Shown here in pieces: positions 12,495 to 58,329 of a stretch of 62,266 nucleotides of DNA. Within the stretch, counting starts at the first letter, position 1. Every line of letters starts with the position of its first letter. The notes under the pieces are model-generated. The model was given only the letters and a program-made list of their open reading frames with translations, did not search any database and was not told where the DNA came from. The stretch comes from Minisyncoccota bacterium (GTDB taxonomy: Bacteria; Patescibacteriota; Minisyncoccia; UBA6257; XYB1-36-10): positions 1-62,266 of the forward strand of contig JBAZJH010000004.1 of assembly GCA_041651415.1 (NCBI GenBank), written 5' to 3'. Made by a program: the position numbers and the translations under genes.

Positions 12495-12495
12495 T

Positions 12496-18461: not shown

Positions 18462-18468
18462 AAAAAGG

Positions 18469-18497
18469 AGTATAGTGTGGGAATTGGCAAAATTCAA
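18469..18497 (-). promoter_or_regulatory. Sigma70-type promoter, positioned for a leaderless transcript
   Basis: Minus strand TTGAAT-17 nt-TATACT, followed by 7 nt and then the ATG at 18461. Confidence 0.55.
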
Positions 18498-18516
18498 TAG
18501 TGTTTTTTTATTTTTT

Positions 18517-19164
18517 ATGATTAAAGAAAGGCAAAAAAAAGGAACTAAAGCAGCAAAAGGAGCAGTTGTTGTTTTGGGCGGAACGGTAAAAAAGGGGAAA
18601 AAGGAATGGCATACTTGTGAGTTTGACGAGGGGGACAGATTCGGCGTAACAGGAGATAAATTAAGAGTATTAGTCGGAGCTTTTATTTTTAAGAAATTAG
18701 AAAATAAAAGAATTGATTTTGATATTATTGCTTCCGGAGGAAAAATAGAAGAGGGGATTTTTATAGCAGAAGTGATAAAAAAGGAATTAATAGTTTTAGG
18801 AGTGCCGGAAAGAAAAATCAAAGAAGAAAAAAAATCACGGAATACTTTCCAGCAATTTTTAAATATACAGACAGCAGCTAAAAAAAATAAATATAAAGAG
18901 CTAATGTTTATCACAAACGAATGGCACAAACCCAGAGTAAAAATAATTTTAAGAGAAGCGCCAAAATTGGAGAATTTAAGAAAAATGAAAAAGGAAGGAA
19001 AAATTAAAATTTTGGGAGCGGAAAAAATAGTTTTAAAGAGTGATAGAAAAGAATGGGAGAAAAAAATAAAAAAAGCTTATGCAAGTTTGGCAATAAAAAA
19101 AAGAATCGGATTGGAGAAAAAAGGGATTGAAGATATAAAAAAAGGAAGATATATTTTCAGATAA
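18517..19164 (+). CDS. YdcF/DUF218 (SanA/ElyC-like) family protein
   Basis: VVVLGG, IASGG, EKKSRNT and ITNEWHKPRV motifs. ATG at 18517 preferred. Confidence 0.75.
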   Translation: MIKERQKKGTKAAKGAVVVLGGTVKKGKKEWHTCEFDEGDRFGVTGDKLRVLVGAFIFKKLENKRIDFDIIASGGKIEEGIFIAEVIKKELIVLGVPERKIKEEKKSRNTFQQFLNIQTAAKKNKYKELMFITNEWHKPRVKIILREAPKLENLRKMKKEGKIKILGAEKIVLKSDRKEWEKKIKKAYASLAIKKRIGLEKKGIEDIKKGRYIFR

Positions 19165-19214: not shown

Positions 19215-20318
19215 TTAATTAATAAGAGAAAAAGTGAGAGGATCTCCGCGGCTGATGTCACATTTTGCGGTTTTACCCAAAAGATCAAAAAAATAACGAG
19301 TGGCGAGTCCGGGAGCGTTTGCGGTACGGAGACCGCGAATATTACCTTGAGTTAGCAATTCTCCAGTTTTTATGTTTTTTATGGCAATAATGACGCGGCG
19401 GAAACCGGCAAATTGTTTTTCGGTATCGTTTTTAGGGCCATAAATGATTTGGCCGAAAAGCGGTCCGTTTTTGATTTTGGAGGCAAGGCGGGATCGATCG
19501 CTGGGGAGTAATTTTTCATCGGACCGGATATTATCCACCATTGATTTAAACTCCAACTCATCAAGAGAAAAAGCATCATCTAAGATGAAAGGGTTATGTT
19601 GTAAAACCAGATGTTTTTCAATGATGGAAGCTCCAAGTATGGCAGCAGCGCGGGCGATATCGGTTCCCCCGGCGTTTTCAGAGAGACCTATTTCAACATT
19701 GAAGCGTTCTTTCAGGTCTAGCATAGTGGCGAGATTGGCAGTAGCGGAAGGGGAAGCTGAATCGTAAGATGTGAGACAGAAAAGCAGAATGAGATCTTTT
19801 GCTCCAAAATTGCGGAGAGTTTGAATGGAATAAGTCACTTCTTCCAAAGAATCAAGACCAGTGGAAGCAATGATGGGTCGGCCGGTTTTTGCCACCTTTT
19901 CCAAAAAAGGAATGAAGTTGAATTCATAGGAGGCAATTTTGTAGCAGGGGGGATTAAATTCTTCCAAAAAATCAACAGCACTTTCGTCAAAAGGAGTGGA
20001 AAAAGTTTCCAATCCATATTCGGCCGCTAAAGCAGAAAGTTGCGGAAACCAATTCCATGGAGTAGAGGCTTCTTCATAAAGTTTATAGAGCGTTCTACCT
20101 TTCCAGTTCCCAGCAGCTTGAAACCAAGGTTGAGGAGAATCAAGTGTCATAGTGCTTGCGGTGTAAGTTTGAAGCTTTACAGCGTCAGCACCAGCACGAG
20201 CGGCAGCTTTTACTAACTCTTTGGCTTGATAAAAATCTCCTTGATGATTACAGGAAATTTCAGCGATGATAAAAACTGGATGTCCAATGCCGATTGAGTA
20301 ATTTCCGATTTTGGTCAT
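19215..20318 (-). CDS. pseI: Nonulosonate (pseudaminic acid-type) synthase, NeuB/PseI family with C-terminal SAF domain
   Basis: IIAEISCNHQG, GADAVKLQTY, STPFD, YKIASYE, IIEKHL motifs; pseB and pseC in the same locus. Confidence 0.8.
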   Translation of the reverse strand: MTKIGNYSIGIGHPVFIIAEISCNHQGDFYQAKELVKAAARAGADAVKLQTYTASTMTLDSPQPWFQAAGNWKGRTLYKLYEEASTPWNWFPQLSALAAEYGLETFSTPFDESAVDFLEEFNPPCYKIASYEFNFIPFLEKVAKTGRPIIASTGLDSLEEVTYSIQTLRNFGAKDLILLFCLTSYDSASPSATANLATMLDLKERFNVEIGLSENAGGTDIARAAAILGASIIEKHLVLQHNPFILDDAFSLDELEFKSMVDNIRSDEKLLPSDRSRLASKIKNGPLFGQIIYGPKNDTEKQFAGFRRVIIAIKNIKTGELLTQGNIRGLRTANAPGLATRYFFDLLGKTAKCDISRGDPLTFSLIN

Positions 20319-20348
20319 AAAATTCTCCTTACCAATATAGAGAATAAG

Positions 20349-21239
20349 TTATTCTTTGCGAGCGTAGATGGTTATCTCGCGGCCAATTCCAAGTTCAGCA
20401 AAGTTTCGAAAGAGTTTTCTCTTGAATGGATTGTCGTGTTTGGCGAGCGTTTGTTCAAAGAGGACTCTTTTTTTATGAATCATTTTTCCTATTTCAGGGC
20501 AACCGACGTATTGGTCGCCAAAAAGAATAAACATTTCTAACGGAAAAGTCGATTCTTTAAGGATTACTTTGAAGCCAACACTTTCAATTAGTTTTACCAA
20601 GGTGGAGACGGTAAAATAATTGATGTGCACAGGAGCGGTTACCCACCATTCATCAAGATGATATTCTTGATTAGCGATTGTCTGCAAAACATTAAACTCA
20701 TTCGGCACTCTAACAATTAAGAGGCCGTTATCCACTAAAATGTTATTAATGTTTTGCAAGATGACGTTTGGTTCAAGCAGATGTTCAAGAACACCCAAGA
20801 GAACGGCAGTGTGGAATTTTTCCTGAACGACAGAATTTAGTTCTTCGATGTGAGATCGAACGACATTCAGACCGGATTCTCTAGCGTTCTTAATTGCCTG
20901 AAACGAAGGATCTAAACCGAAAGCGTCATAACCTTTTTCTTGGCAATAATGCAAAAAACTGCCGAAGCCACAACCGATATCGATGATTCTATTGCCAGGC
21001 GCTTTAGAGTTGACAATTTCGATAATATCAGCGTATTGAATGCCTAAAAAATCTTTTTCCTCTTTCTGATTCTGAATTTCAGGAGCGGAATCTTGAATTT
21101 GTCCCTCTCGGTAGTTTCCGCCATAGAATTGTTCTTCGTAGTAGGCTTTGAGAGTTTCACAACTGGGCAGAGGAGAAAGGTGAAAATATCCTTTCTCTTT
21201 ATCGAAGATAACAGAAAACTTGCCGGCATTTTCTTTCAT
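20349..21239 (-). CDS. Class I SAM-dependent methyltransferase
   Basis: IIDIGCGFG, VLEHL, VRVPNE, HINYF motifs; AAGGAG SD before the ATG at 21239. Confidence 0.8.
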   Translation of the reverse strand: MKENAGKFSVIFDKEKGYFHLSPLPSCETLKAYYEEQFYGGNYREGQIQDSAPEIQNQKEEKDFLGIQYADIIEIVNSKAPGNRIIDIGCGFGSFLHYCQEKGYDAFGLDPSFQAIKNARESGLNVVRSHIEELNSVVQEKFHTAVLLGVLEHLLEPNVILQNINNILVDNGLLIVRVPNEFNVLQTIANQEYHLDEWWVTAPVHINYFTVSTLVKLIESVGFKVILKESTFPLEMFILFGDQYVGCPEIGKMIHKKRVLFEQTLAKHDNPFKRKLFRNFAELGIGREITIYARKE

Positions 21240-21347
21240 TTTTTTCTCCTTTTTCAATTATTATTCAGTTTTAGAATGCTGGAAGTAAAATAACTTTTTT
21301 TTGCAAAAAAGTCAATTTAAAGGGAGAAAAAATGTCAGAAAAGAAAA

Positions 21348-22637
21348 TTAGCGAATTTTAAAAATATCGGTAATAGGGTCTCCTTTAAGATTTTTTCTTA
21401 AGGTTTTTTTATCAAGAAACTCTTTTAGTTTTTTAAAAATACAGCCATAAGCATTAATAACCGTGTCTAGATCTTTTTTAGTATGGCTTAAATTGAGAAT
21501 GTGGTTGCCAATCCAAAGAATATTTTTTTCCAAAAGCTCCTGCTGGATATAGCTTTTAATTTCGATAGCGGCAAAGCCGTTAGAGCTTGAAACAAGAACT
21601 GATTGCCAGGGAACGATTCCGACAATTATGACAGTATCTCCCAGATTATTTTTTTTGATTAAACGGTCCAGATTTTTTTTGAGATAGAGAGCTTTTTGCT
21701 TAATGACGGACGGAAACTTTTCTTTTTCCATCACTTTTATAGTGGCAATGGCGGCAGCAAGAGACAGACATTCTCCGCCAGCGGTGAAAGAGAAAAAAAT
21801 GTCTTCCATTTTTTTCATATATTTAGCTTTGCCGACAACAGCAGAAATAGGCATGCCGTTAGACATAGCTTTGCCAAAGGTGGCGAGATCGGGCGTGACT
21901 TTATAAAGAGCTTGCGCTCCGCCGAGACTAGTTTTCCAACCGCTGGCGACTTCGTCAAAAATAAGAAGAGCGCCATATCTATGAGTAATTTTTTTAACAG
22001 CGGCAAGAAAACCAGGAGAAGGAGCTTCATAAGTAGCTGGCTCCAAAATAACGGCAGCTATTGATTTGGAATATTCCTTAAAGATTTTTTCAAGGGAAGA
22101 GATGTCGTTAAAGGTGAATTTATGAGACAGAGCGCGAGTGGCTTCAGGAATGCCAAGATTTCGAGTGGTGGTGCCAATAGACCAATCGTGCCAACCATGG
22201 TAGCCACCGACGGCAATATGATCTCGGCCGGTGACAGCGCGGACGAGACGAATGGCGGCAGTAGTGACATCGGAACCATTCTTGCCAAAACGAACCATTT
22301 CGGCGCAGGGAATATGTTTTTTTAGCAGAAGAGCCAGCTCGTATTCCAAGGAGGAAGCAAGAGAAAAGACGATTCCTTTCTTAAGCTGATTTTTAATAGC
22401 TTTATCGATAGCCGGATATTGATAACCGAGGCTGATGGCGGCTAATCCACTAACCAAATCAATATATTCATTTCCGTCGATATCCCAAAGGTGAGAACCG
22501 CGGCCGCGGACAGCAAAAAGAGGAGCTACTTCTTTAATGTATTGAAGATAGCTTTTTGAAAAGGTTTGTGAAGCGGTGGGAACAATGGAAACGACTTTTT
22601 TAAATAAAGAATTGCTTTTGTTAAATTTTGATTTCAT
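21348..22637 (-). CDS. Class III PLP aminotransferase (GSA-aminomutase-like), glycan-locus type
   Basis: GSHLWDIDGNEYID, FGKNGSD, YHGWHD, LLIFDEV, DLATFGKAMSNG motifs. Confidence 0.85.
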   Translation of the reverse strand: MKSKFNKSNSLFKKVVSIVPTASQTFSKSYLQYIKEVAPLFAVRGRGSHLWDIDGNEYIDLVSGLAAISLGYQYPAIDKAIKNQLKKGIVFSLASSLEYELALLLKKHIPCAEMVRFGKNGSDVTTAAIRLVRAVTGRDHIAVGGYHGWHDWSIGTTTRNLGIPEATRALSHKFTFNDISSLEKIFKEYSKSIAAVILEPATYEAPSPGFLAAVKKITHRYGALLIFDEVASGWKTSLGGAQALYKVTPDLATFGKAMSNGMPISAVVGKAKYMKKMEDIFFSFTAGGECLSLAAAIATIKVMEKEKFPSVIKQKALYLKKNLDRLIKKNNLGDTVIIVGIVPWQSVLVSSSNGFAAIEIKSYIQQELLEKNILWIGNHILNLSHTKKDLDTVINAYGCIFKKLKEFLDKKTLRKNLKGDPITDIFKIR

Positions 22638-23377
22638 CAATAATATTTTTTAAAGCCGCTATTGTCAGTGTAACGGCTGTTAAGATTGAAAATGTGGGGA
22701 TTTTTATCTAATAAATCCACATAATGAGAGAGTGGAGCGTCAATGGGACTATGAGCGATGAGAAATTTGATTACTTCGAAATCTTCCGGATAATCAAGCG
22801 TTAAACGATAGCGAGAAAGATTTTCCGGGTAGTTAAAAAAACTTTTTTTAATTTTTTTATTTTTACGCATAATAGGAGTGACATGCTCGCGCTCGGCGGG
22901 GAGACGAGCGGAGGAAGCGGCAAGAGCCAGAAGTTCTTTAGTAAAGACTTCGCCGCCAATACCATCAGGAAAAGTTTCATAATTTTCGGCAGAGGTGCTG
23001 GCAAAATCAACCGATTGACTGAAAAAAAGATCAATTAAATTATTGATGATGGCCGGGTCATTTAGTGGACAATCACTTGTGAGGCGAATAATGTGCTGAT
23101 AATTCGGATAAGCGAGAGAGCAGAGATGGTAGCGATTAAGAACATCATCTTCAGAACCGCGGAAGCAATCAATATTAAGGCGACGACATTCATCAATAAT
23201 GGCATCATTTTCCGGATTAGTTGAAGTAGCGACAATGATTTTATCTATTTTAGAACATAATTTATATCGTTTAATTTGATAACCGAGAATAGTATCTTCT
23301 TCATTAACTTTAAAAAGAACCTTGCCGGGCAGGCGGGTAGACTTTAGACGAGCTTGGATAATGGCGAGAGTAGACAT
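22637..23377 (-). CDS. spsF: SpsF-type acylneuraminate cytidylyltransferase
   Basis: IIQARLKSTRLPGKVL, FRGSEDDVLNRY, RLTSDCPL, REHVT, RLTLDYPED motifs. Confidence 0.8.
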   Translation of the reverse strand: MSTLAIIQARLKSTRLPGKVLFKVNEEDTILGYQIKRYKLCSKIDKIIVATSTNPENDAIIDECRRLNIDCFRGSEDDVLNRYHLCSLAYPNYQHIIRLTSDCPLNDPAIINNLIDLFFSQSVDFASTSAENYETFPDGIGGEVFTKELLALAASSARLPAEREHVTPIMRKNKKIKKSFFNYPENLSRYRLTLDYPEDFEVIKFLIAHSPIDAPLSHYVDLLDKNPHIFNLNSRYTDNSGFKKYY

Positions 23378-23379
23378 AA

Positions 23380-24045
23380 TTAATCGTTAAGAGTTCTAAT
23401 TATTTGAAAGGCTTCAGCAAAATGATAGCCAACTTCCAGGCCGCGATATTGAGCCAGAATTTTAATACTTTCCAAGGAACGGGGATGAGGGTATTCTCTT
23501 AATTCATCTTCATATATTTTTAAAATGTCTATTTTTTTAGGAAGAAATTTTGCGATGTCGTTATATTCAGTCGGGCAAAAAGCATAAGTTTTCATTTGCC
23601 ATTCAGTGGAAGAAGGCGTTTCAAAAGTGAGAATTTTTTTAACAGAGAATTTAGGTTGAGGACGGCAAACAGTTAAGACTGCTTGAAAGGTCAAGCGATG
23701 GTCAATATTCAGATCGTGGGCGTGGTGCGTATAAATAATACTGGGATTAAGTTTGTTAACGGTGTTTTCAATAATTTTAATTATTTTAAGCAGGGGAATA
23801 GAATCGAACTGATTATCCGGAAGTTTTTCCATTATGAGATTACTGACTCCAAGAAGACGAGACACTTCTTTAGCTTGTCGCTCTCTTTTATTGATATCAG
23901 CACCGGAATCTCGGGAAGTTTCGCCATCACTTAAGATGAGAATACTGACATTATCTCCGGATGAAATATGTTTAAGAATTGTTCCGCCAACGCCTAAAAC
24001 TTCGTCGTCCGGGTGAGCGGTTATGACTAGAATATTATTTTTCAT
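23380..24045 (-). CDS. PIG-L/LmbE family N-deacetylase
   Basis: TAHPDDEVLG and DLNIDH motifs. Confidence 0.85.
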   Translation of the reverse strand: MKNNILVITAHPDDEVLGVGGTILKHISSGDNVSILILSDGETSRDSGADINKRERQAKEVSRLLGVSNLIMEKLPDNQFDSIPLLKIIKIIENTVNKLNPSIIYTHHAHDLNIDHRLTFQAVLTVCRPQPKFSVKKILTFETPSSTEWQMKTYAFCPTEYNDIAKFLPKKIDILKIYEDELREYPHPRSLESIKILAQYRGLEVGYHFAEAFQIIRTLND

Positions 24046-24718
24046 ATATATCCACTTGAGCGATTATTTTGTTATTTTTGAATTTAGCTTTAGAAAGGTC
24101 AAATTTTAATTTCTTTGTTTCTAAAAATGCTTGCGGATATCCTTCAGCATCAAGCATTCGGATAATATCATATGTTTTATTTAAATTAAAAGAGGGTAAA
24201 ATTTTACTTTGTTTCGGCTTTCTTCTTTTAAACAAAACTATTTTTCCTTGCTGGGATTTTGGTTTTGGATGATTGTTAATGATAAAAGGAATTATCTTGC
24301 GAAAAATGTTTTTAGCGGCACGGCGAAAAATTTCTTCCGCATTTCCTTTTAAACTTAAATTTTTTTGGCAATAAATATCTCCTGTATCCAAACCGGCATT
24401 AACCCTAAGAGCGGAAATTTTGGTGCGAGTATGCCCGCGCATAATCAGATTTTGCAGGGGACTGCCGCCGCGGCCGTAAGGCAAGTCGGTCATATGAAAA
24501 ACAATGCATTCAAAATTAGACCAGATATCTTCCGAAATAATCCAGGACCAGTGAGGAAAAAAAATAATTTTTGGATTTATTTTTTTGATTTTAAGAGGAG
24601 TGAGATCCTTTTTGTCAGTAATTAAAAACCAGTTGTTTTTTTTATCTTTGTTTTTTAAATTATTAAATTCTTCGTTATTCCAGGATTTAGCGGTGGCTAC
24701 AAGATAATTTTCTTTCAT
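24035..24718 (-). CDS. Fmt-like formyltransferase (short), probable sugar N-formyltransferase
   Basis: FFPHWSW, FHMTDLPYGRGGSPLQN, GLDTGDIY, IRMLDAEGYP motifs. Confidence 0.8.
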   Translation of the reverse strand: MKENYLVATAKSWNNEEFNNLKNKDKKNNWFLITDKKDLTPLKIKKINPKIIFFPHWSWIISEDIWSNFECIVFHMTDLPYGRGGSPLQNLIMRGHTRTKISALRVNAGLDTGDIYCQKNLSLKGNAEEIFRRAAKNIFRKIIPFIINNHPKPKSQQGKIVLFKRRKPKQSKILPSFNLNKTYDIIRMLDAEGYPQAFLETKKLKFDLSKAKFKNNKIIAQVDIYEK

Positions 24719-24726
24719 AATATTTA

Positions 24727-25425
24727 TTATACATTTTTGCGGCCGCTTCTTATTACGTTAAGAGAATTTGGCCCTTCGTTAAAAATCAGGTCAATAACGG
24801 ACAGATGAGAAATAAAATCTCCCCAGAGCTGATCATAAACAGGATGTTCAAAGTTTTGATATTCCAGTTTTATATTATTTTTTATAAAGTGATTATCGGC
24901 ATCAATATAATCTTTGGCTCCAACCGGGGACAGATATTCATCAGCGCCGATTTTTCGGCAAATATCACAAAGCAGTTCTGATTTTTTTCCTTGAGGATTA
25001 AGATTTGATGAATAAAATACTTGGCAATTCAGACCAATAATTTTTTTTATCCATAGAGTCAGAGGAATAGAAATATCAATAAGTTTTGTAATTTCTTGAG
25101 AATAAAGATGACCTAATTCATTAAAATATTTTTCAAAGAACGGAGCTTTGGCATAGTTTATTTTTATAGACTGCAGATGTTTTTCTTTCCATTGCTGAGA
25201 GTTATCCAAAACAACTTCATTTATCTTTTGATGATATTTTCCTTTACTTAAAACAGGAATAGACAGCCATAATTCACCACTGGGAGATTTAATTCGATTT
25301 CTTTGCTCCCAATCTCTTTTGATGTGCTGAACATGGTCTAGAAACACAAAAGCGTCACATTGATCCATTAAATCAAAATAACCCATCCAAGGAAGATAAT
25401 TCGGCTGCATAATGACGGCTTTCAT
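24727..25425 (-). CDS. wbqC: WbqC family protein
   Basis: IMQPNYLPWMGYFD, FVFLDHVQ, QRNRIK, YLSPVGAKDY, LSVIDLIFNEG motifs. Confidence 0.85.
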   Translation of the reverse strand: MKAVIMQPNYLPWMGYFDLMDQCDAFVFLDHVQHIKRDWEQRNRIKSPSGELWLSIPVLSKGKYHQKINEVVLDNSQQWKEKHLQSIKINYAKAPFFEKYFNELGHLYSQEITKLIDISIPLTLWIKKIIGLNCQVFYSSNLNPQGKKSELLCDICRKIGADEYLSPVGAKDYIDADNHFIKNNIKLEYQNFEHPVYDQLWGDFISHLSVIDLIFNEGPNSLNVIRSGRKNV

Positions 25426-25432
25426 AAGGTAA

Positions 25433-25461
25433 ATAATAGATTAAAAGATGAGGAGAGTCAA
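25433..25461 (-). promoter_or_regulatory. Sigma70-type promoter for the wbqC operon, leaderless
   Basis: Minus strand TTGACT-17 nt-TATTAT, then 7 nt and the ATG at 25425. Confidence 0.6.
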
Positions 25462-25532
25462 CTTGATTTTTTTTAATTTAGTATTATTATATTGGGAGAA
25501 TTTTAAAAGAGAAAAAAGACAGAAAGGAAAAA

Positions 25533-26594
25533 ATGATGGAATTTATCACGACTAAAAAGTATCTCCGCGGCAACTTTAATCGAGTTATCAAGTATGAGGA
25601 GTTAAAGATTCTTAGAGCGATTGAAGTCGGTCAAGATTTAAATTTAAGAAACGACAAAGAAAATCTTGGTTTATTAGAGCAATACGGGAATGAGGGATAT
25701 AAAATAATTCCGATCAAGAGAATTTCTTTTAACAGCAACGCTCTTCTCGATGATTTTCCAAAGAGAGTGATGGTGGAAATGACAGGAAGATGCAATTTGG
25801 CATGCCGGATGTGTCCAAGAAAAGACATGAAGCGTCCGCTCGTTAATATGGATAAGGAACTGTATAAAAAAATAATCAACGAATTGGATGAATACGGAAT
25901 TGATGCTTTTTGGTTTTTCCATTTTGGAGAATCGATTTTGCATCCGGATTGGAAAGAATTAGTCAGTTATGCCGGCGAGAAAAAGAATCTTGGCATAACT
26001 TGGTTTTCCACAAACGGAGTTTTATTTGGCGAAGAAGAGATTGATTTTGTTTTAAATTCCAAGATTACCTTTCTTAATTATTCTTTGCATGGCACAAATG
26101 AGGAGGTGTACAGCTTTGTTTCTTCAAAAGAGAATTATCCGAATGTTCGCAAGCATTTGGAGATGATACTTTGGAAAAAGAAGGAGCTAGGCAAGGGTCC
26201 GATAATTCATATTCAGATGATTGACCAAGAGGGAACTCATCATGACATTGACGAATTTCTGGAAACTTTTTATCGTACCGGAGAGATATTAAGCATTATT
26301 TCTCTCGAGTATACAAATTTGCCGGAAAATCGGTATGGGTTAAAACGAAACCGGTCTGGGGAATTAAAAAAATGCAATCGAATTTCGAGAGGAGATTGTT
26401 TTGTTGATTGCTCAGGTTTTGTGAAGCTTTGCGACGCCGATTACGATAGTCTAAGAGCTATCGGCAATTTAAGAGACGGAACTCTTCATGAGTTTTGGAA
26501 TTCTCCGGCCAGAAAACTCGTTTATGAATTGAATGACCAGGGGAGGATGTTTGAGCTTGAATGTTGTCGTGATTGCGCTGATTTTGATCTTTGA
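25533..26594 (+). CDS. Radical SAM protein with C-terminal SPASM/twitch-like Cys cluster
   Basis: CNLACRMC (CxxxCxxC), FGESILHP, STNG, and C-terminal C...C...C...CxxC. Confidence 0.85.
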   Translation: MMEFITTKKYLRGNFNRVIKYEELKILRAIEVGQDLNLRNDKENLGLLEQYGNEGYKIIPIKRISFNSNALLDDFPKRVMVEMTGRCNLACRMCPRKDMKRPLVNMDKELYKKIINELDEYGIDAFWFFHFGESILHPDWKELVSYAGEKKNLGITWFSTNGVLFGEEEIDFVLNSKITFLNYSLHGTNEEVYSFVSSKENYPNVRKHLEMILWKKKELGKGPIIHIQMIDQEGTHHDIDEFLETFYRTGEILSIISLEYTNLPENRYGLKRNRSGELKKCNRISRGDCFVDCSGFVKLCDADYDSLRAIGNLRDGTLHEFWNSPARKLVYELNDQGRMFELECCRDCADFDL

Positions 26595-26612
26595 TTTTTA
26601 TTAGGAAAATCT

Positions 26613-26642
26613 ATCCCGTTCTTAAATTTTTAAGGACGGGAT
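26613..26642. terminator. Probable bidirectional terminator
   Basis: ATCCCGTTCTTA / TAAGGACGGGAT stem followed by a T run, between the convergent radical SAM and AKR genes. Confidence 0.6.
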
Positions 26643-27565
26643 TTTTTTAGCGGTGTTTTCCAGAGGGATGGATTAACAATGGCTTTTTCAGTTTGAGAAA
26701 ATTTTTCTTCCATAAAAAAGAAAAAGTCATTGGGCAGAGGAGGAAGATTAGTGGCAACGAATAGGACTTCCTTAATTTCAGCAGGAGTATTAGCGCCGAA
26801 AACAATAAAGTCGAGATTGGGATTTTTAAGAGTGAAAGCGAGAGTGGCGGCAAGAGGAGAGAGATGACAGCGATTAAGATAACTAATGAATTCATTTAAG
26901 AGGGGTTTAGCGCGGTTAAGATGAGGAGGAACTTTTTTAGAAGGCATAAGCAAAAGGCCTTGCAAGAAAGGGCTGCGAGCAAAGACAGTGATATTGTTTT
27001 TTTTAGCAAGATTAAAAAAGCCAGCGTGATTAAGACGTTGGTCAAAAATATTATAAGGAATTTGGATATAATCGACCGGCATATTAGCGGCGTAGAGAGC
27101 TTCGGCTTCGTCATAAATAGAGACGCCGAATTTTTTAATTAAACCATCAGATTTAGCTTTTTTAAGACCATTAATTATGTGGATATTATAAACATATTGA
27201 GGAGTATGGAGCAGATAACCATCCAGTTGGTCGATATTGAGGCGTTGGAGAGATTTATTAATTTCCAGGCGGATAATATCAGATGCTTTAACACCATCAG
27301 GATAATCATTTAAGGCGTAGGGTTTTAATTTGGAGATAATTTTTATTTTATTATTCAAATTGCGGGATTTAATCCATTTTCCCAAGACATCTTCGGCAGC
27401 GCCATAAGCAAAGGCAGTGTCAAAAGTATCAATGCCAAAAGTTAAAGCATTGTCTAAAATAGAAAAAGATTCTTTTAGAGAAGGCTGGCCTTTTATATTA
27501 TTTAAACCGTATGGCAGACCGAGCTCAACAGTGCCAAGAACCAGTTTAGAGTTTTTTTTATTCAT
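26630..27565 (-). CDS. Aldo/keto reductase
   Basis: LVLGTVELG, FDTAFAYG, IISKL, YLLH, FGVSIY, QIPYNIFD motifs. Confidence 0.85.
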   Translation of the reverse strand: MNKKNSKLVLGTVELGLPYGLNNIKGQPSLKESFSILDNALTFGIDTFDTAFAYGAAEDVLGKWIKSRNLNNKIKIISKLKPYALNDYPDGVKASDIIRLEINKSLQRLNIDQLDGYLLHTPQYVYNIHIINGLKKAKSDGLIKKFGVSIYDEAEALYAANMPVDYIQIPYNIFDQRLNHAGFFNLAKKNNITVFARSPFLQGLLLMPSKKVPPHLNRAKPLLNEFISYLNRCHLSPLAATLAFTLKNPNLDFIVFGANTPAEIKEVLFVATNLPPLPNDFFFFMEEKFSQTEKAIVNPSLWKTPLKKSRP

Positions 27566-28574
27566 AGTTATATTTCTTTTCTTTCATAAACATCGGAACA
27601 ATTAATCCGCCGAAGCCCTTCTTAAAGTGGGAGATATTGAGCTGCTTATCAGTGGGTGACCAATAGGGCTGGTGTCCTATTTCATAAAATTTCATTTTTT
27701 TGTTTTTCATATATTTAATAGCGGACCATTGAATTACGTGAGAGGTAGGAATGTTGTTGATATTAGGATCATTACAGGCAGAACCATAGAAGGCGTTGTC
27801 TTTGAAGGTGTAGAAATAAGAGACACCAACAGGAATTTTATCAAGAAAGGCAAAGACAATAAAATTTTTGCTATCTTTAATTAATTTAAACATAATATCA
27901 AAAGTTGAAGAGGGGCGGTTAGAGACGCCAAATCTTTTCTTATAGAGCAGGGTATATTGATTAAAAATCTCAGAGGTTATATTTGAAGAATCAAAAACAG
28001 AAGTAGTAAGGATTTTTTCTCCTCTAGTTATATCAGCTCTATGCCCATGGCGGAGATTTCTTTTTAATTCGTTTAATGATTTAGACAAGTCAATTATCTG
28101 GCTGGAAGCATTGACATTGTTATAGCTAAAAAAGGAAAACATTTTGTCGGCGGTAGAGTATTTTTTATTTAAAAAGGAAAGAGAGAGGGAAGAGAGAACG
28201 AATCGGGAAACGGAAACATTGTTTTCTCGGGATAGTTTTTCTATTTCTTCAAGAATTATTTGATATATTTTTTCTTTATCAGAAGAGAGAATATTATTAG
28301 AAAGGGCGGGCATGGGGGTGGCCCAACTACTGAAATAAAAGCCGTTAATCAAATCGTTTTCCGATTTTTTTATTTCGAGAATCAGAGGAATGACAGCAAG
28401 TATTTTTCCGTTTTTTTGAATAGAAAAACTAAAATTTTTAGCTTCAGAATCTAATTGATATTTAAAGATAAAATTAATCCAATCAGAGGTGTGCCAAAAC
28501 CAAGCATCATTTGATTGTAGGCAGAAGCTGTTCCATTTTTTTTCTTCAGTATTCGAAAAGGGTATTATCTGCAT
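27558..28574 (-). CDS. GNAT / FemAB-like acyltransferase
   Basis: IIDLSKSLNEL..NLRHGHR, AFYGSAC, HVIQWSAI, HFKKGFGG: tandem-GNAT FemABX-like pattern. Confidence 0.7.
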   Translation of the reverse strand: MQIIPFSNTEEKKWNSFCLQSNDAWFWHTSDWINFIFKYQLDSEAKNFSFSIQKNGKILAVIPLILEIKKSENDLINGFYFSSWATPMPALSNNILSSDKEKIYQIILEEIEKLSRENNVSVSRFVLSSLSLSFLNKKYSTADKMFSFFSYNNVNASSQIIDLSKSLNELKRNLRHGHRADITRGEKILTTSVFDSSNITSEIFNQYTLLYKKRFGVSNRPSSTFDIMFKLIKDSKNFIVFAFLDKIPVGVSYFYTFKDNAFYGSACNDPNINNIPTSHVIQWSAIKYMKNKKMKFYEIGHQPYWSPTDKQLNISHFKKGFGGLIVPMFMKEKKYNYE

Positions 28575-28577
28575 AAT

Positions 28578-29561
28578 TTAGCAATTGTTAATCGCACATA
28601 CAATATCTTCCAGGTTTTTTTTACTCAAATATTGATGACAAGGGACAGCGAGGCATTTCTTATAAAGAGGATTAAACAGATTACGATTAATATCAAAATG
28701 AAGAATTTCAACATCGAAGTTTTTTCGAGATAGATCGTTTTTCATCTTAGAAAGCTTTTTTTCGGGAGCAAAAATAGGAAGAGCAAGAGGATTGGGATCT
28801 ATATTTGGATCGTGGTCGGGTATAAGAAATTCCGGAAGAATATTTTTTTTGAGGAAATTATAGTTTTCTTTTCTTTTTTTTAAGTCCGATTGCAAGGATT
28901 CCAGTGAAGGTGGAAAAAGATTTAAAGATTTTTGAGGAGTGGAATAAAAGGTGTGGTATTGGCTATAACATATTTCAGTGGCGGTTGAGGAAGGATGCCC
29001 TCGATAAGCTCTCAGAGCTTTACGGGCACACCAGTCGCTAAAGACTTTTTTTAGAAAATTTTCTTTTTGGTGAAATGGTTTTAAGTTTTGGCCAGAAACT
29101 TTTAAAAATCCTCCCATACCGGTGGGAAATATTTTTGAAAAACTAAAAATGGAAAAATTTCCAAAACTGCCTATATTTTTTCCTTTATACTTCGAATCAA
29201 AGGAATGGGCGCAATCTTCTATTATTAAAAGTTGTCTTTTTTTTGATTCAAGAATAACGGAATCCATATCTTGGGGATAGCCCCATTGATGGAGTATGAG
29301 GACAGCTTTTGTTTTTAAATCGGGAGTTTTGACTGGAAAAGAAGTTTGGTTGAGAATGGAGAGGACGCACTGACTTAGGAAATCGGGAATGAGGATGTGA
29401 TCGCAGCGTGATAGTTTGGATAGCTTCAGAGCTTCTAAAAGAGCGAATCTTCCTGAGCTGAAAATGCTTAGGGGGGAATTAAAAAAATATTCTAAAGTTT
29501 TTTTGACGTTAGATTTTTGAGGTCGGATTTTTTTGTTATAAGGGTAGATGGTTATAGGCAT
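28578..29561 (-). CDS. DegT/DnrJ/EryC1/StrS family PLP aminotransferase (short)
   Basis: SSGRFAL, IIEDCAHS, FSFSKIFP (PLP Lys), VPCHQYL motifs. Confidence 0.75.
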   Translation of the reverse strand: MPITIYPYNKKIRPQKSNVKKTLEYFFNSPLSIFSSGRFALLEALKLSKLSRCDHILIPDFLSQCVLSILNQTSFPVKTPDLKTKAVLILHQWGYPQDMDSVILESKKRQLLIIEDCAHSFDSKYKGKNIGSFGNFSIFSFSKIFPTGMGGFLKVSGQNLKPFHQKENFLKKVFSDWCARKALRAYRGHPSSTATEICYSQYHTFYSTPQKSLNLFPPSLESLQSDLKKRKENYNFLKKNILPEFLIPDHDPNIDPNPLALPIFAPEKKLSKMKNDLSRKNFDVEILHFDINRNLFNPLYKKCLAVPCHQYLSKKNLEDIVCAINNC

Positions 29562-30283
29562 TTTTCGATAATAAGATCTTCTCGTGAATCGGAAAAAGGA
29601 AGGCTAGATGATTGTTTTAAAAAAGAAAAACGGCGGATTTCGGGAGTATTTTTTAAAATTGATTCCAGAAGAGGTTTGGTTATAACAAGAGAAGAAGGAG
29701 CGGTGTTGATTTTATAGAAGCGATAAAAGAAATTAGTAGTTTCTTTTTTAATATAGTATTGAATGTTTTTTATAAAATTAATAATAGGACGGGATTGGCG
29801 GTGTTTTAAATTTGCTTCATATTTGTCTCTCAAAGGAATATCACCAATCAATATTCTTCCTCCAGGAGAAGTGGTTCGGATTAGTTCGAAAAAGAGTTTT
29901 TCAAGAGAGTTATAATTATCCAAATAATGGATAACGCTGTAACAGATAACAGCAGAAAATTGATTGTTAGGAAAATCTAATTTTTTATTGAGATCAACAA
30001 TTTTAAAGTCGGTCGGACAGAAAAATTTTTTTTGTCGGGCTATAAATAAAGCAGATGGAGCATTATCAGAAAGGGTAATTGATGAGCAAGGAAAAATATA
30101 TTGGGTGATGTCGCCAGTGCCGGAACCAACATCAAGAATTTTGTCTTCTTTTTTAAGATTTAGCTTAAGCGATATTTCTCGGGCAATTTTTTTAAATAAA
30201 AAAAGATGGAAAGAAAACATTCTTCCAGAGCGAAGGAAAGAAGGAGTTTTAGAAAGCTGGTTAAAGGAGTCGATGAATGACAT
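29552..30283 (-). CDS. Class I SAM-dependent methyltransferase
   Basis: ILDVGSGTG, YSVIHY, GGRILIGDIP motifs. Confidence 0.8.
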   Translation of the reverse strand: MSFIDSFNQLSKTPSFLRSGRMFSFHLFLFKKIAREISLKLNLKKEDKILDVGSGTGDITQYIFPCSSITLSDNAPSALFIARQKKFFCPTDFKIVDLNKKLDFPNNQFSAVICYSVIHYLDNYNSLEKLFFELIRTTSPGGRILIGDIPLRDKYEANLKHRQSRPIINFIKNIQYYIKKETTNFFYRFYKINTAPSSLVITKPLLESILKNTPEIRRFSFLKQSSSLPFSDSREDLIIEKCL

Positions 30284-31432
30284 TTATTTACTGAAAAAAT
30301 TTTTTATGGAAGAAATTGTTTTTTTTATTTGTTTTGAGGTTAATCCAGGATAGAGAGGAATGGTAATGGCGGTTTTGGCATAGAGATCAGCGATGGGGAG
30401 ATTTATGTTTTTAAAACCGTTTTCTTGATAATAAGGATGGGAATAAACAGGCGGATAATGAAAATTGATGCCAATGCCGGATTGTTTTAAATATTCATAA
30501 AGAGGAAGACGATCCTCCGGATTTTTTGTTCTGATGACAAAGAGATGCCAACTGGAGCGAATACTTTGGTCTTTAGCAGGAAGGATTATTTCCGGAAAAT
30601 TCTCGAGTTCTTTAAAATAAAAATCAGCAAGTTCTTGGCGTTTTTTTATAAAATTTTCAAGTTTTTTGAGCTGGCTTAAGCCGAGAGCGGAATTAATATC
30701 TGACAAGCGATAATTAAAACCGAGATTAGTCATAACATTAAAACCTTGTTCATTTTTTCTAATACCATGGCTTCTTAAGAGTTTTAATTTTTCATAAAGT
30801 TCTTGATTATCGGTGGCAATAGCGCCGCCTTCGCCGGTAGTAATAGATTTTACCGGATGAAAACTAAAAATAGTCATAGAGCTTTTTCCGCTACCTATGG
30901 GCTGGTTTTTGTAAAAAGCGCCAAGAGCATGAGCGGCATCTTCAATAACAGCAAGGTTGTGGCGGGAAGCAATATCCCAAATTTTTTCCATAGCGCAGGG
31001 ATGGCCGGCAAAATGAACGGGAACAATAGCTTTAGTTTTTTCAGTAATGAGAGATTCTATTTTTGATTCATCGATATTTGAGGTGTCTTCTCTAATATCA
31101 CAAAAAACTGGTTTTGCGCTGAGAACAAGAAGCATATTAGCGGTAGCGGCAAAAGTGTTTGGAGTGGTGATAACTTCATCGCCTTCTTTTAGTCCGGAAG
31201 CAAGATAAGCCAAGTGAAGAGCAGCGGTACCGGAGGAAACAGCAACAGCATAACGAGAACCGACGATTTTTGCTAAAGCTTTTTCAAAGGCCGGACCGAT
31301 CGGGCCTTGAGTAAGCCAATCAGACCGAAGAGTTTTAATAACGGAAAAAATGTCTTTCCAACTCAGATATTGTCGGCCGTAAGGGATTATATTTTTTGGA
31401 TTATTTCCTGAAGTTTTTCGTTGGTTAGCCAT
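30284..31432 (-). CDS. pseC: UDP-4-amino-4,6-dideoxy-N-acetyl-beta-L-altrosamine transaminase
   Basis: IPYGRQ, SDWLTQGP, SSGTAALH, EDAAHALG, FSFHPVKSITTGEGG, GFNYRLSD motifs; adjacent to pseB. Confidence 0.88.
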   Translation of the reverse strand: MANQRKTSGNNPKNIIPYGRQYLSWKDIFSVIKTLRSDWLTQGPIGPAFEKALAKIVGSRYAVAVSSGTAALHLAYLASGLKEGDEVITTPNTFAATANMLLVLSAKPVFCDIREDTSNIDESKIESLITEKTKAIVPVHFAGHPCAMEKIWDIASRHNLAVIEDAAHALGAFYKNQPIGSGKSSMTIFSFHPVKSITTGEGGAIATDNQELYEKLKLLRSHGIRKNEQGFNVMTNLGFNYRLSDINSALGLSQLKKLENFIKKRQELADFYFKELENFPEIILPAKDQSIRSSWHLFVIRTKNPEDRLPLYEYLKQSGIGINFHYPPVYSHPYYQENGFKNINLPIADLYAKTAITIPLYPGLTSKQIKKTISSIKNFFSK

Positions 31433-32376
31433 TCTGTGTTGGTATTGCTCGCAAAACGAAAAGAAGGATTGAGTTTTGACCCGATGGTTTCATATTTGGA
31501 AAAGACAGGGCTTTGAGCAAGTCCTGATTCAGGAATGACAACATAATATTTTTCTGTTTCATAACCGTGCTTGGATTCTTCTTCAGTGAGAAGAGTTTCA
31601 TGCAGTTTCTCTCCTGGCCTAATGCCAGTCACTTCCTGTTTTGCTGCCGGGGCGATTATTTTAAAGAGATCAGAGATTTTCATGCTGGGAATTTTAGGGA
31701 CAAATATTTCTCCTCCTTCCATATTCTTCAGCGCAAAAAGAACCAAGTTAAAACTTTGCCTTAAAGTTATCCAAAATCTAGTCATGTCAGGATGAGTTAT
31801 CTCAACTTTATCAACTTTTTTGTTTAAAAATTTTTCAACAACGCTGCCGCGGCTGCCGATAACATTGCCATAACGGACGGCGCTGAATTTAGTTTTTTGA
31901 GAGGGAGAATAAGAATTGCTGTTTATAAAAAGTTTTTCAGCGCAAAGTTTGGTAGCGCCGTAAAGATTAACCGGCTGAGCAGCTTTATCAGTAGAGATGA
32001 GCAAAACTTTTTCTATATTTTGATTAAGAGCGGCTTCAACAATATTTTGAGAACCGATAACGTTAGTTTTAATGGCTTCTTGAGGATTGTATTCAATAGC
32101 AGGAACTTGTTTTAGAGCAGCGGCATGGACAACAATATCCACTTTTTGAAAAGCTCTTTCTAAGCGTCCCAAGTCTCGAACATCACCGATAAAAAAGCGA
32201 AGACGATCTTCAAATTGGCGCAGTTCTTGCGCCATATGAAATTGCTTATATTCGTCACGGCTAAAGATTATTATTTTTTGAGCAAGAGAATTTTCCAGGA
32301 GAAATCGAGTGAAGCTTTTGCCGAAAGATCCAGTGCCGCCGGTAATGAGGATGGTTTTGTCTTTTAAAAATTCCAT
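31387..32376 (-). CDS. pseB: UDP-N-acetylglucosamine 4,6-dehydratase (inverting)
   Basis: LITGGTGSFG, FSRDEYKQ, AALKQVPAIEYNP, STDKA, LYGATK, RYGNVIGSRGSV, MTRFWI, GIRPGEKLHE motifs. Confidence 0.92.
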   Translation of the reverse strand: MEFLKDKTILITGGTGSFGKSFTRFLLENSLAQKIIIFSRDEYKQFHMAQELRQFEDRLRFFIGDVRDLGRLERAFQKVDIVVHAAALKQVPAIEYNPQEAIKTNVIGSQNIVEAALNQNIEKVLLISTDKAAQPVNLYGATKLCAEKLFINSNSYSPSQKTKFSAVRYGNVIGSRGSVVEKFLNKKVDKVEITHPDMTRFWITLRQSFNLVLFALKNMEGGEIFVPKIPSMKISDLFKIIAPAAKQEVTGIRPGEKLHETLLTEEESKHGYETEKYYVVIPESGLAQSPVFSKYETIGSKLNPSFRFASNTNTEWLTNEKLQEIIQKI

Positions 32377-32499: not shown

Positions 32500-33561
32500 A
32501 TGCTGATTTTGGCGGTGATGAACGATATAGGAAGTTGTAAAACGATTTTTCCAGTAGGATTATACTTGCGGAAAATAGGTCACAAAGTTAAATTTCTCGC
32601 GAGTGGAAATTCTTTAGGAATTTTATCAGAAGAGGATGAGAAGAAAATAAAAAAAGGAGATGTAAAAGCGGTGGTGACTGGAATGTCTACTGACCCATTT
32701 GAATATTCAGTAGCATCAACTTGGAGGGATAAATGTCCAATAATCGCAATTCCTGACCAGTGGTCAACGCCGTTTTTTTCTGGCGGTTGGAAAAATAGAG
32801 AATGTTATCCGGATGTTGTATGTGTAAATGATGAGATTGGGAGAGGAGCGGTGAGATCTTGGGGATTTAACGGTTTTATAGTTGAAACTGGCTGGCCGGC
32901 GCTTGATGTTTATGCGGATAGAGAAAAATGGAAAGCGAAAAATCAAGAGATGCGAGAAAAATTATATTTAGCTTTAAAGCTTTCTTTAAAAACTAAACTA
33001 ATCTTTTTTATCGGCCAGGGATCAAGAGAAAATGCGGAAGCATTGCAAGAACTTCTTGAAACAACTGCAAAAATTGGATTATCAGTTAAAGTGATAGCGA
33101 TGGAACATCCAAATATGAGACGACATGAACCGGAGGGGACAAAGTTTTGGGATAGGGTAGTTGGTGTTGAAGAAGAAAAAGGCCAGAGTTTGCTTTTAAA
33201 ATCTTCCGGATTTTCTTCTTTAGAGGTATTAATGGCGGCTGACGTAGTAGTATCTGATTTTTCTTCTATGTTGACTGAGGCGGCGATTTTAGGAAAATCG
33301 GTAATTTCTGTGTTTTATCCCAGTAAACGAATCTGTGAGATTTTCAAAAAGTGGGATTGGGCGCAAAATACATTTCCATTAGAAGCTCTGGGTTGTTGTT
33401 TTAAAGCAGAGAATCGCGACCAACTCCAAGAATTTTTGGAGCGAGCTTTAATTTCTGGATTTGAATTTTCGGAGCGTGCAAAAAAAGTTTTTCGGTTGGA
33501 TGGGAAGAATTCAGCAAGAGTAGCAAAGATTGTTGAAAATCTTGCCGAGTGTCATCTCTAA
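32500..33561 (+). CDS. Uncharacterised GT-B-fold-like protein (TagF/glycerophosphotransferase-like C-terminus)
   Basis: ETGWPALD and MEHP...ADVVVSDFSSMLTEAAILGK segments; divergent from pseB. Confidence 0.45.
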   Translation: MLILAVMNDIGSCKTIFPVGLYLRKIGHKVKFLASGNSLGILSEEDEKKIKKGDVKAVVTGMSTDPFEYSVASTWRDKCPIIAIPDQWSTPFFSGGWKNRECYPDVVCVNDEIGRGAVRSWGFNGFIVETGWPALDVYADREKWKAKNQEMREKLYLALKLSLKTKLIFFIGQGSRENAEALQELLETTAKIGLSVKVIAMEHPNMRRHEPEGTKFWDRVVGVEEEKGQSLLLKSSGFSSLEVLMAADVVVSDFSSMLTEAAILGKSVISVFYPSKRICEIFKKWDWAQNTFPLEALGCCFKAENRDQLQEFLERALISGFEFSERAKKVFRLDGKNSARVAKIVENLAECHL

Positions 33562-58320: not shown

Positions 58321-58329
58321 TTAAAAAAA

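Follow-up and report, generated by a model that had tools for sequence, protein, structure and literature searches.

A probable variant of the pseudaminic acid pathway, with a DUF218 protein as candidate replacement for PseG, in the glycan island of an ultrasmall patescibacterium

Background

The canonical route to cytidine monophosphate (CMP)-activated pseudaminic acid (Pse), known from Campylobacter jejuni and Helicobacter pylori, proceeds through PseB, PseC, PseH, PseG, PseI and PseF. Here we examine a nonulosonate locus of the window, i.e. the whole 62,266-nucleotide contig JBAZJH010000004.1, in which PseB, PseC and PseI belong to their curated families by hidden Markov model (HMM) cut-offs, while PseH, PseG and a PseF-family enzyme are missing and unrelated proteins are proposed to take their places. 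The window is one entire contig (C4) of a 10-contig, 741,344-bp draft genome (completeness 98.98%) from an ultrasmall, Paceibacteria-like member of the Patescibacteria, or candidate phyla radiation (CPR), whose closest named relatives are metagenome-assembled genomes (MAGs) of Candidatus Pacebacteria/Paceibacterota. We put at about 60% the probability that the locus encodes a new variant of the known CMP-Pse-type pathway, with a DUF218 hydrolase in the place of PseG, set within a larger glycan island. The chemical steps would be shared with the canonical route (dehydration, amination, N-acylation, release of uridine diphosphate (UDP), condensation with phosphoenolpyruvate (PEP) and CMP activation), but the window adds a deacetylase, extra aminotransferases, reductases, a radical SAM enzyme and methyltransferases.

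A second system suitable for comparison is the sps pathway of Bacillus subtilis for legionaminic acid (Leg; SpsM, C, D, G, E, F; PMC7439481). It likewise employs UDP-linked intermediates and an SpsF-type cytidylyltransferase; however, its product is Leg instead of a Pse-type sugar, and both the PseG-like SpsG and SpsD, an acetyltransferase of GNAT type, are retained. A third is represented by DUF218 proteins of Escherichia coli. SanA/UprA and ElyC/UprB are hydrolases that split the phosphoacetal bond of sugars linked to undecaprenyl diphosphate (C55-PP), with attack from the sugar side, and the catalytic residues of SanA are T125, H149, R152 and E182 (bioRxiv 10.64898/2026.10.14.759067, October 2026 preprint). 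UprC/YgjQ is inferred in the same work to be a colanic-acid release factor, pending in vitro validation. The sugar-1-diphosphate bond cleaved by SanA/UprA is of the same kind as that which PseG cuts in a UDP-sugar. Finally, the BFO_1060 family comprises Tannerella transferases for Pse/Leg derivatives that carry an HP motif (PMC5420450).

Results and discussion

Core enzymes and the absence of PseG and PseH

Genes for PseB, PseC, a NeuB/PseI synthase and an SpsF-type cytidylyltransferase had been recognized in the first-pass annotation, and all four are present where it placed them (Table 1). That PseB and PseC both score above their equivalog cut-offs supports a route which begins as a genuine Pse route. 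The synthase, the sole NeuB protein of the genome, passes the PseI model marginally and fails the NeuB_NnaB model (232.9 bits, where 399.65 are required). In a quick IQ-TREE tree of NeuB-type sequences it falls into a clade of 12 rows, 11 of them from Patescibacteria or window-related loci and one from a MAG labelled Gammaproteobacteria. In this quick tree, no member of the clade is PseG-linked, and the clade is distinct from the two mostly PseG-linked clades beside which it sits.

The cytidylyltransferase is the sole CTP_transf_3 protein of the genome. The PseF-family model (TIGR03584) was not among the models listed for it at E <= 0.01, and its nearest relative in the PDB is 6oew, an uncharacterised cytidylyltransferase. 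With a profile of this SpsF-type enzyme we retrieved 80 loci from Bacillota, Bacteroidota, Cyanobacteriota, Acidobacteriota, Campylobacterota, archaea, CPR and others, and counted neighbouring genes within 10 kb. NeuB/PseI was present in 67 of the 80 SpsF-type loci, PseC in 64 and PseB in 58; PseG-like proteins were detected in 47 and PseH-like GNATs in 52, PseG being usually encoded directly downstream of the cytidylyltransferase. A second cytidylyltransferase occurred nearby in only nine loci and in none of the other 71. In B. subtilis, the transfer of Leg requires spsF, which is dispensable for Leg synthesis (PMC7439481). From the frequent presence of NeuB, the rarity of a rival cytidylyltransferase and these B. 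subtilis data, we infer that the SpsF-type enzyme acts as the CMP-nonulosonate synthetase of such clusters.

The first-pass annotation had also seen no PseH or PseG in the window, and had allowed that canonical copies elsewhere in the genome would overturn its reading. Both proved to be absent genome-wide. Across the whole genome, the PseG model TIGR03590 gave two weak matches of about 16 and 17 bits (best 17.4, cut-off 153.55), in open reading frames (ORFs) recognizable as MurG and a GT4 glycosyltransferase; the PseH model TIGR03585 gave no match at E <= 1; and custom HMMs for the two proteins, derived from 47 related loci, found nothing, the best score of the PseH HMM being 12 bits. Since both curated and custom HMMs find neither gene, the objection that canonical copies lie elsewhere falls away.

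It might still be argued that the two genes were lost to gaps in a 10-contig draft, or that the intermediate is taken from a host, CPR bacteria often being episymbionts with many auxotrophies; the pathway would then be otherwise canonical and its product plain Pse5Ac7Ac. This we consider very improbable. The draft is nearly complete (see above), the syntenic relatives L003, L007 and L013 (compared loci are designated L, genomes G) lack both genes in an uninterrupted cluster, PseG is missing from 11 of 15 PseI-positive Patescibacteria genomes, and none of the synthases that group with that of the window in the tree is PseG-linked. Moreover, the deacetylase, formyltransferases and FemAB-like enzyme described below speak against a plain di-N-acetyl product.

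A DUF218 gene beside pseI

In Patescibacteria clusters without PseG, a protein of about 200 aa with the Pfam domain DUF218 recurs just upstream of PseI. A profile of these proteins matched the window at 18442-19164 (+), where an ORF of 215 aa begins with the ATG at 18517. It is the sole DUF218 gene of the genome. The first-pass annotation had overlooked it; the gene lies just outside the stretch covered there (19215-32376) and had been hidden beneath an over-long antisense ORF (17823-18929). We regard it as a real gene on several sequence criteria: its Pfam score, 77% amino acid identity to the homologue in L013, nucleotide differences from L013 that are distributed 28/28/62 over the three codon positions of the DUF218 frame, indicating purifying selection, and an antisense frame which is full of stops in L013. 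The antisense ORF of 368 aa (- strand) is a chimera, whose first approximately 156 codons run antisense to the DUF218 gene. The true start of the methyltransferase that it encodes is probably the ATG at 18461 and not 18929, because the upstream part overlaps the real DUF218 gene and has no open frame in L013. The DUF218 and methyltransferase genes diverge from a 55-bp spacer with promoter-like hexamers on both strands. On its other side, the DUF218 gene faces pseI tail-to-tail at a distance of 51 bp from the pseI stop codon, and a terminator hairpin with a 12-bp stem lies between them.

No transmembrane or hydrophobic segment was found in the DUF218 protein (Kyte-Doolittle means over 19 aa peak at 1.16), and it is therefore predicted to be cytoplasmic, where UDP-sugars are. 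It shares the Pfam domain with the Upr-like factors of E. coli (UprA/SanA, UprB/ElyC, UprC/YgjQ), and its R50, T110, H137 and R140 align with R69, T125, H149 and R152 of SanA from E. coli K-12; the bond attacked is proposed to be of the same type. The E. coli factors work in the periplasm, anchored in the membrane, and their substrates are undecaprenyl-diphosphate glycans; the window protein is soluble, its gene is linked to those of nucleotide-sugar enzymes, and it would act on a UDP-sugar. Like the rest of the nonulosonate-linked DUF218 subfamily, it is also extended at the C-terminus by about 60 aa, which are helical in the window protein. A Foldseek search with its model gave weak matches (YdcF, 3ca8, TM-score 0.46) and was uninformative.

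Gene context and distribution of the DUF218 subfamily

For the survey of the phylum, 401 Patescibacteria genomes were sampled. Matches above 120 bits over the full length were assigned to the subfamily, and those below 90 bits, which lack the C-terminal segment, were considered generic DUF218. Genomes were called PseI-positive if they exceeded the TIGR03586 cut-off, which applied to 15 of the 401. The subfamily gene adjoins that of PseI in G236, G281, G161 and the window genome, and that of a second NeuB in G230; it also lies in the same cluster as Pse genes in L045, L027 and G312. In Taylorbacteria L008, DUF218 is fused to the cytidylyltransferase (L008 11081-12544) in the order PseB-PseC-FemAB-CTP3::DUF218-NeuB. 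H. pylori HP0326 likewise joins PseF and PseG. The minimal cluster L126 (G236) reads PseB-PseC-DUF218-PseI-Fmt.

PseG exceeded its cut-off in only four of the 15 PseI-positive genomes. The DUF218 subfamily was present in eight of the 401 genomes, six of which were among the 15 PseI-positive ones (hypergeometric P = 2e-8), and none of these six possessed PseG. The four PseG-positive genomes contained generic DUF218 only, a type found in 176 of the 401 genomes. Outside Patescibacteria, DUF218 was encoded in 5 of 33 SpsF-type loci without PseG, one of them from Bacteroides stercorirosoris, versus 1 of 47 with PseG. The combined Fisher P for mutual exclusivity of PseG and DUF218 is 0.002, uncorrected for shared ancestry. 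Gene context, distribution and conserved residues taken together, we believe that the DUF218 protein is probably a non-orthologous replacement of PseG. Our literature searches found nothing joining DUF218 and pseudaminic, or "nonulosonic acid" and Patescibacteria.

Several observations weigh against such a role. The gene is convergent to pseI and lies outside its operon. Window E169 fits SanA E182 by spacing, but MAFFT sets it opposite D192. Neither of the two exclusivity tests is significant by itself (P = 0.10 and 0.08), and both leave shared ancestry out of account; locus L089 holds PseG and DUF218 together, 9 kb apart. Five of the 15 PseI-positive genomes contain neither PseG nor the DUF218 subfamily, so that some other solution must exist too. 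The cytoplasmic DUF218 protein of E. coli, YdcF, has no known substrate (bioRxiv 10.64898/2026.10.14.759067), and demonstrated DUF218 activity is confined to C55-PP-linked sugars.

The last point leads to an alternative in which the window protein keeps the published role, releasing or salvaging glycans from undecaprenyl diphosphate, with UDP hydrolysis left to an unrecognised or promiscuous enzyme or not needed at all. The contig does encode a complete Wzx/Wzy-type and ABC-type assembly line, generic DUF218 is common in the phylum, and the five genomes just mentioned manage without either candidate hydrolase. Nevertheless, the window protein carries neither membrane anchor nor signal sequence, and its subfamily is complementary to PseG and tied to genes of the synthase and the cytidylyltransferase (to the point of fusion in L008), not to those of polymerases or flippases. 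Furthermore, the minimal cluster of G236 consists of nucleotide-sugar enzymes only. We therefore hold the lipid-carrier role to be unlikely and favour hydrolysis of a UDP-sugar.

Two further gene arrangements were noted in the phylum. In the PseG-less clusters L123 (G022; 10501-12104) and L124 (G312; 10520-13101), a PylC-like ATP-grasp protein and a HAD hydrolase, as assigned by Pfam, are encoded between PseH and PseI. The same pair is inferred for L019 (12646-15217) from matching sizes and positions, and the ATP-grasp protein is sometimes fused to an SDR epimerase domain. This pair may represent another way round the missing step, or an amide-linked decoration. Many Patescibacteria also encode fusions of a NeuB-type synthase domain, scoring 220-285 bits and thus less than the PseI cut-off, to another domain, in open frames about 630 aa long, for example G085:C2:19577-20539 and G008:C3:51612-52577.

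An orphan GT-B protein next to pseB

Another candidate for the missing hydrolase is encoded head-to-head with pseB in the window, in close relatives and in G056. This orphan GT-B protein could be a diverged NeuC/LegG-like UDP-sugar hydrolase, possibly 2-epimerising, in which case DUF218 would do something else. In its favour, the best structural matches of the AlphaFold2 model (predicted local distance difference test score, pLDDT, 94) in Foldseek are UDP-N-acetylglucosamine (UDP-GlcNAc) 2-epimerases (TM-score 0.65-0.68, E about 1e-11), followed by TagF, and there are weak Pfam Epimerase_2 matches (for the window protein, 17.9 bits to PF02350, below the cut-off of 30.6). G053, too, has the GT-B protein and lacks both PseG and the DUF218 subfamily. 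When a profile is compared with the PDB, however, TagF-like polymerases (1.8e-7) precede the epimerases (about 7e-5), and only the nucleotide-binding C-domain aligns with the NeuC-like enzyme, not the N-domain that carries the epimerase acids. The family has about 223 representatives. Asp136 and His203 are invariant, the latter within a His-Pro motif which, together with the TagF-like matches, fits transferases using CMP or cytidine diphosphate (CDP) donors.

The distribution of the GT-B family points in the same direction. Strong members occur in only 3 of the 401 Patescibacteria genomes, and relatives across the sample accompany PseG, DUF218 or neither. In G056, a canonical PseG (159.8 bits, above the cut-off) is encoded three genes away; in G054, a weak family match of 44 bits lies beside PseG and PseI. 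A role as PseG substitute was rejected as the main explanation on account of these two genomes and the C-domain-only likeness, and we regard it as improbable. As the protein coexists with PseG and resembles a NeuC-like enzyme only in its C-domain, a CMP- or CDP-donor transferase is favoured, and DUF218 remains our candidate for the PseG step.

A second transferase candidate is the 409-aa protein of Table 1, a 30%-identical homologue of which is encoded head-to-head with pseB in G022. The Tannerella forsythia enzymes Tanf_01245 and TFUB4_00887 (PMC5420450) are GT-B proteins of TagB-like type that carry an HP motif and whose genes adjoin those for nonulosonates, and in these broad terms the two window proteins resemble them. 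The sequence likeness is, however, marginal: the 409-aa protein reaches 20 bits where 200 are required, and the orphan GT-B protein matches no curated family.

Candidates for the PseH step

PseH has probably been replaced by formyltransferase-like and/or FemAB-like acyltransferases, and sequence comparisons single out three candidates in the window (Table 1). The first, the PurN-type protein, has both the catalytic set of sugar N-formyltransferases dependent on N10-formyl-tetrahydrofolate (N10-formyl-THF; Asn-x-His...Asp) and the SLLP-type motif. The second, the Fmt-like protein, lacks this set: its motif is VFHMTDLPYGRG, with the His kept and Val in place of the catalytic Asn. This Fmt-like subtype is nonetheless the sole acyltransferase candidate in the minimal cluster L126 (G236). 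A PIG-L family gene recurs next to the Fmt-like one in L025, L044, L058 and L093, a pairing which suggests that the original N-acetyl group is removed and the amine re-acylated. The third, the FemAB-like protein, has homologues that carry PF13480/PF02388; two of these (P0054 and P0055) are fused to the tRNA-binding domain GatB_Yqey, which hints at aminoacyl-tRNA as a donor. Its gene adjoins PseC in Taylorbacteria L008, and at other loci it coexists with PseH-like GNATs. In the window it adjoins the gene of a PLP_IMCC1989-like protein, a pairing predicted by the description of TIGR04421 (FemAB, IMCC1989 type).

That the PseH replacement is split among three candidates, one of them without the catalytic Asn of formyltransferases, is a further point against our reading of the locus. 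With a FemAB-like protein, two formyltransferase-like proteins and a PIG-L deacetylase encoded together, the product is likely to be a Pse-type sugar with non-acetyl N-substituents. The earlier idea of a non-standard nonulosonate, or of one with an unusual amino-acyl substituent, is thus retained in part, a non-standard N-acylated product being likely, but the missing PseG is better explained by the DUF218 protein.

A four-gene module (about 205, 255, 217 and 385 aa) was also seen to recur in Patescibacteria Pse clusters (L093 10747-13923, L131 12044-15233, L125, L130 and L135). By size and order alone it resembles the amidotransferase set of HisH/HisF/WbpG type, which is associated with acetamidino groups.

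Accessory and tailoring enzymes

A class III aminotransferase, a second DegT enzyme, an aldo/keto reductase, a radical SAM enzyme and methyltransferases are indeed interleaved with the core genes, as first described, but the notion that the locus is particularly loaded with redox and amination enzymes did not hold. The first description did not list the FemAB-like protein, the PIG-L deacetylase, the WbqC-family protein or the two formyltransferase-like genes. The class III aminotransferase is encoded in 48 of the 80 SpsF-type loci, where it adjoins the cytidylyltransferase in 40 of the 48 and is fused to it in L012 (4880-6928) and P0224. It is equally common with PseG (25/47) and without it (23/33). 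The same applies to the aldo/keto reductase, present in 32 of the 80 loci and replaced in its slot by a GFO_IDH_MocA oxidoreductase in the relatives L003 and L007. This independence from PseG status rules out both enzymes as replacements for the missing steps; they make up an accessory module that is widespread among SpsF-type Pse clusters. The O-antigen cluster of Legionella pneumophila serogroup 6/12 contains the same aminotransferase/reductase set along with PseG (PMC3694923). We found no literature that explains the module.

The second DegT enzyme is a shortened pyridoxal phosphate (PLP) enzyme which retains the Asp-Ala-His motif and the Schiff-base Lys; its homologues carry PF27889. It forms a conserved trio with the FemAB-like protein and an oxidoreductase, i.e. 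the aldo/keto reductase in the window and GFO_IDH_MocA in L003, L007 and L120. By analogy with the oxidise-aminate-acylate logic of 3-amino sugars, which it resembles, the trio may add a further acylamino group. Conservation of the radical SAM/SPASM enzyme is limited to close relatives. WbqC and PIG-L proteins were considered as PseG substitutes and ruled out, both co-occurring with PseG at other loci. In the relative L007, PseC is fused to the downstream methyltransferase (627 aa; L007 7124-9007), a hint that the amino sugar itself may be methylated.

Table 1 Features of the nonulosonate locus and its surroundings (positions in the window; bits are HMM scores)
Feature	Position	Strand	Evidence
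409-aa protein, second transferase candidate	15902..17131	-	NF046086 (BFO_1060 family) 20.4 bits, cut-off 200
PurN-type N-formyltransferase	17128..17826	-	Formyl_trans_N 71.6 bits; motif N-F-HESLLP at residue 101
S-adenosylmethionine (SAM) methyltransferase	17823..18461	-	212-aa form retains full methyltransferase domain
DUF218/Upr-like hydrolase, proposed UDP-sugar hydrolase replacing PseG	18517..19164	+	PF02698 52.7 bits, cut-off 27.6
PseI-type nonulosonate synthase	19215..20318	-	TIGR03586 344.8 bits, cut-off 340.25 (marginal pass)
SAM methyltransferase	20349..21257	-	Methyltransf_23 80 bits
Class III (glutamate-1-semialdehyde (GSA)-aminomutase-like) aminotransferase	21348..22640	-	Aminotran_3; NF004856 350 bits, below cut-off 486
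SpsF-type cytidylyltransferase, inferred CMP-nonulosonate synthetase (PseF role)	22637..23377	-	CTP_transf_3
PIG-L family de-N-acetylase	23380..24045	-	Pfam PIG-L 93.7 bits
Fmt-like acyl/formyl transferase, candidate PseH replacement or N5 re-acylase	24035..24718	-	Formyl_trans_N + Formyl_trans_C_2
WbqC-family protein	24727..25425	-	Pfam WbqC 263 bits
Radical SAM/SPASM enzyme	25533..26594	+	Pfam Radical_SAM + SPASM; CX3CX2C at residue 87
Aldo/keto reductase	26630..27565	-	Pfam Aldo_ket_red 134 bits
FemAB-like (double GNAT) N-acyl/aminoacyl transferase	27558..28574	-	TIGR04421 102.6 bits, below cut-off 250
Shortened DegT-like PLP enzyme (PLP_IMCC1989 type)	28578..29561	-	TIGR04422 47 bits, below cut-off 75
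SAM methyltransferase abutting pseC	29552..30283	-	Pfam Methyltransf_11/25
PseC, UDP-4-amino-4,6-dideoxy-beta-L-AltNAc transaminase	30284..31432	-	TIGR03588 453.9 bits, cut-off 423.5
PseB, inverting UDP-GlcNAc 4,6-dehydratase	31387..32376	-	TIGR03589 449.9 bits, cut-off 407.75; Pfam Polysacc_synt_2
Orphan GT-B protein, candidate CMP-Pse transferase	32500..33561	+	invariant His-Pro motif; no curated family match

Model of the pathway

The model that we propose consists of six steps. i) PseB and PseC, as assigned by curated family models, would produce UDP-4-amino-4,6-dideoxy-beta-L-AltNAc. ii) The 4-amino group might then be acylated by the Fmt-like, the PurN-type or the FemAB-like protein. iii) The PIG-L protein may strip the 2-N-acetyl group, permitting re-acylation. 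iv) The cytoplasmic DUF218 protein, to judge from its context, distribution and residues, would cut the sugar-1-diphosphate bond and thus remove UDP instead of PseG. v) The PseI-type synthase would join the free hexose with PEP, and vi) the SpsF-type cytidylyltransferase would form the CMP-sugar. Tailoring could fall to the pair of class III aminotransferase and aldo/keto reductase, along with the DegT-like PLP enzyme, the radical SAM enzyme and several methyltransferases. The sugar would probably be transferred by one of the two TagB/TagF-like GT-B proteins (the orphan or the 409-aa protein), and the product would then pass to the assembly machinery encoded on the same contig (Wzx, Wzy_C, Bac_transf and the ABC exporter).

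On a broader scale, we see an even chance that the soluble DUF218/Upr-like subfamily constitutes a second, independently evolved class of nucleotide-sugar hydrolases, which would perform UDP release in many Patescibacteria and some Bacteroidota and Proteobacteria, and in the present organism would contribute to a formyl or aminoacyl Pse derivative on a methylated, sulfated surface glycan. If this is true, the sugar-diphosphate hydrolase chemistry of DUF218 would extend from lipid to nucleotide carriers, and the cytoplasmic branch of this very large family would gain an assayable candidate substrate matching the chemistry of its periplasmic members. The replacement would also account for the "incomplete" look of most PseI-bearing Patescibacteria (the 11 of 15 genomes lacking PseG). 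The annotation of Pse pathways, and their use as anti-virulence targets, presupposes a fixed set of six enzymes, of which two or three appear to be replaced by unrelated proteins in this locus. Finally, an ultrasmall and probably host-attached bacterium would invest a large share of its genome in a sialic-acid-like glycan, which bears on the interaction of CPR bacteria with hosts and phages.

The surrounding glycan island

The glycan island occupies approximately the first 48 kb of the contig, or about 6% of the 741-kb genome. It contains many GT1 and GT2 glycosyltransferase genes, methyltransferases, an ABC exporter, Wzx, a Wzy_C/TPR protein, an initiating phosphoglycosyl transferase and a sulfation cassette; the gene content of the contig is bacterial, with families such as Bac_transf, Wzy_C and T2SSF and with a type IV pilin-like protein. 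No match was obtained in an Rfam scan of the window. Within the sulfation cassette, a protein encoded at 34931-37714 (-) fuses a pyruvate-kinase barrel to ATP sulfurylase and adenosine 5'-phosphosulfate (APS) kinase, and the same fusion is present in the relative L007. A sulfotransferase gene (34287-34895) and one for a TylF-like methyltransferase (33679-34266) adjoin it.

The gene at 42591-44840 (+) encodes a 749-aa Wzy_C (O-antigen-ligase-like) protein with TPR repeats at its C-terminus, which may serve either as a polymerase or as a protein O-oligosaccharyltransferase. Similar proteins close the glycan loci L004 and L008. To our knowledge, Patescibacteria are generally held to lack an outer membrane. 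Type IV pilus genes are located at 57112-59490. An MsbA-like ABC exporter gene (14077-15882, -) is embedded within the nonulosonate locus itself, as it is in L008 and L011; this suggests an ABC-transporter-dependent glycan besides the Wzx/Wzy set. In Taylorbacteria and Magasanikbacteria, the MsbA-like exporter gene adjoins those of a KpsS/KpsC-like Capsule_synth protein and a FemAB-like protein.

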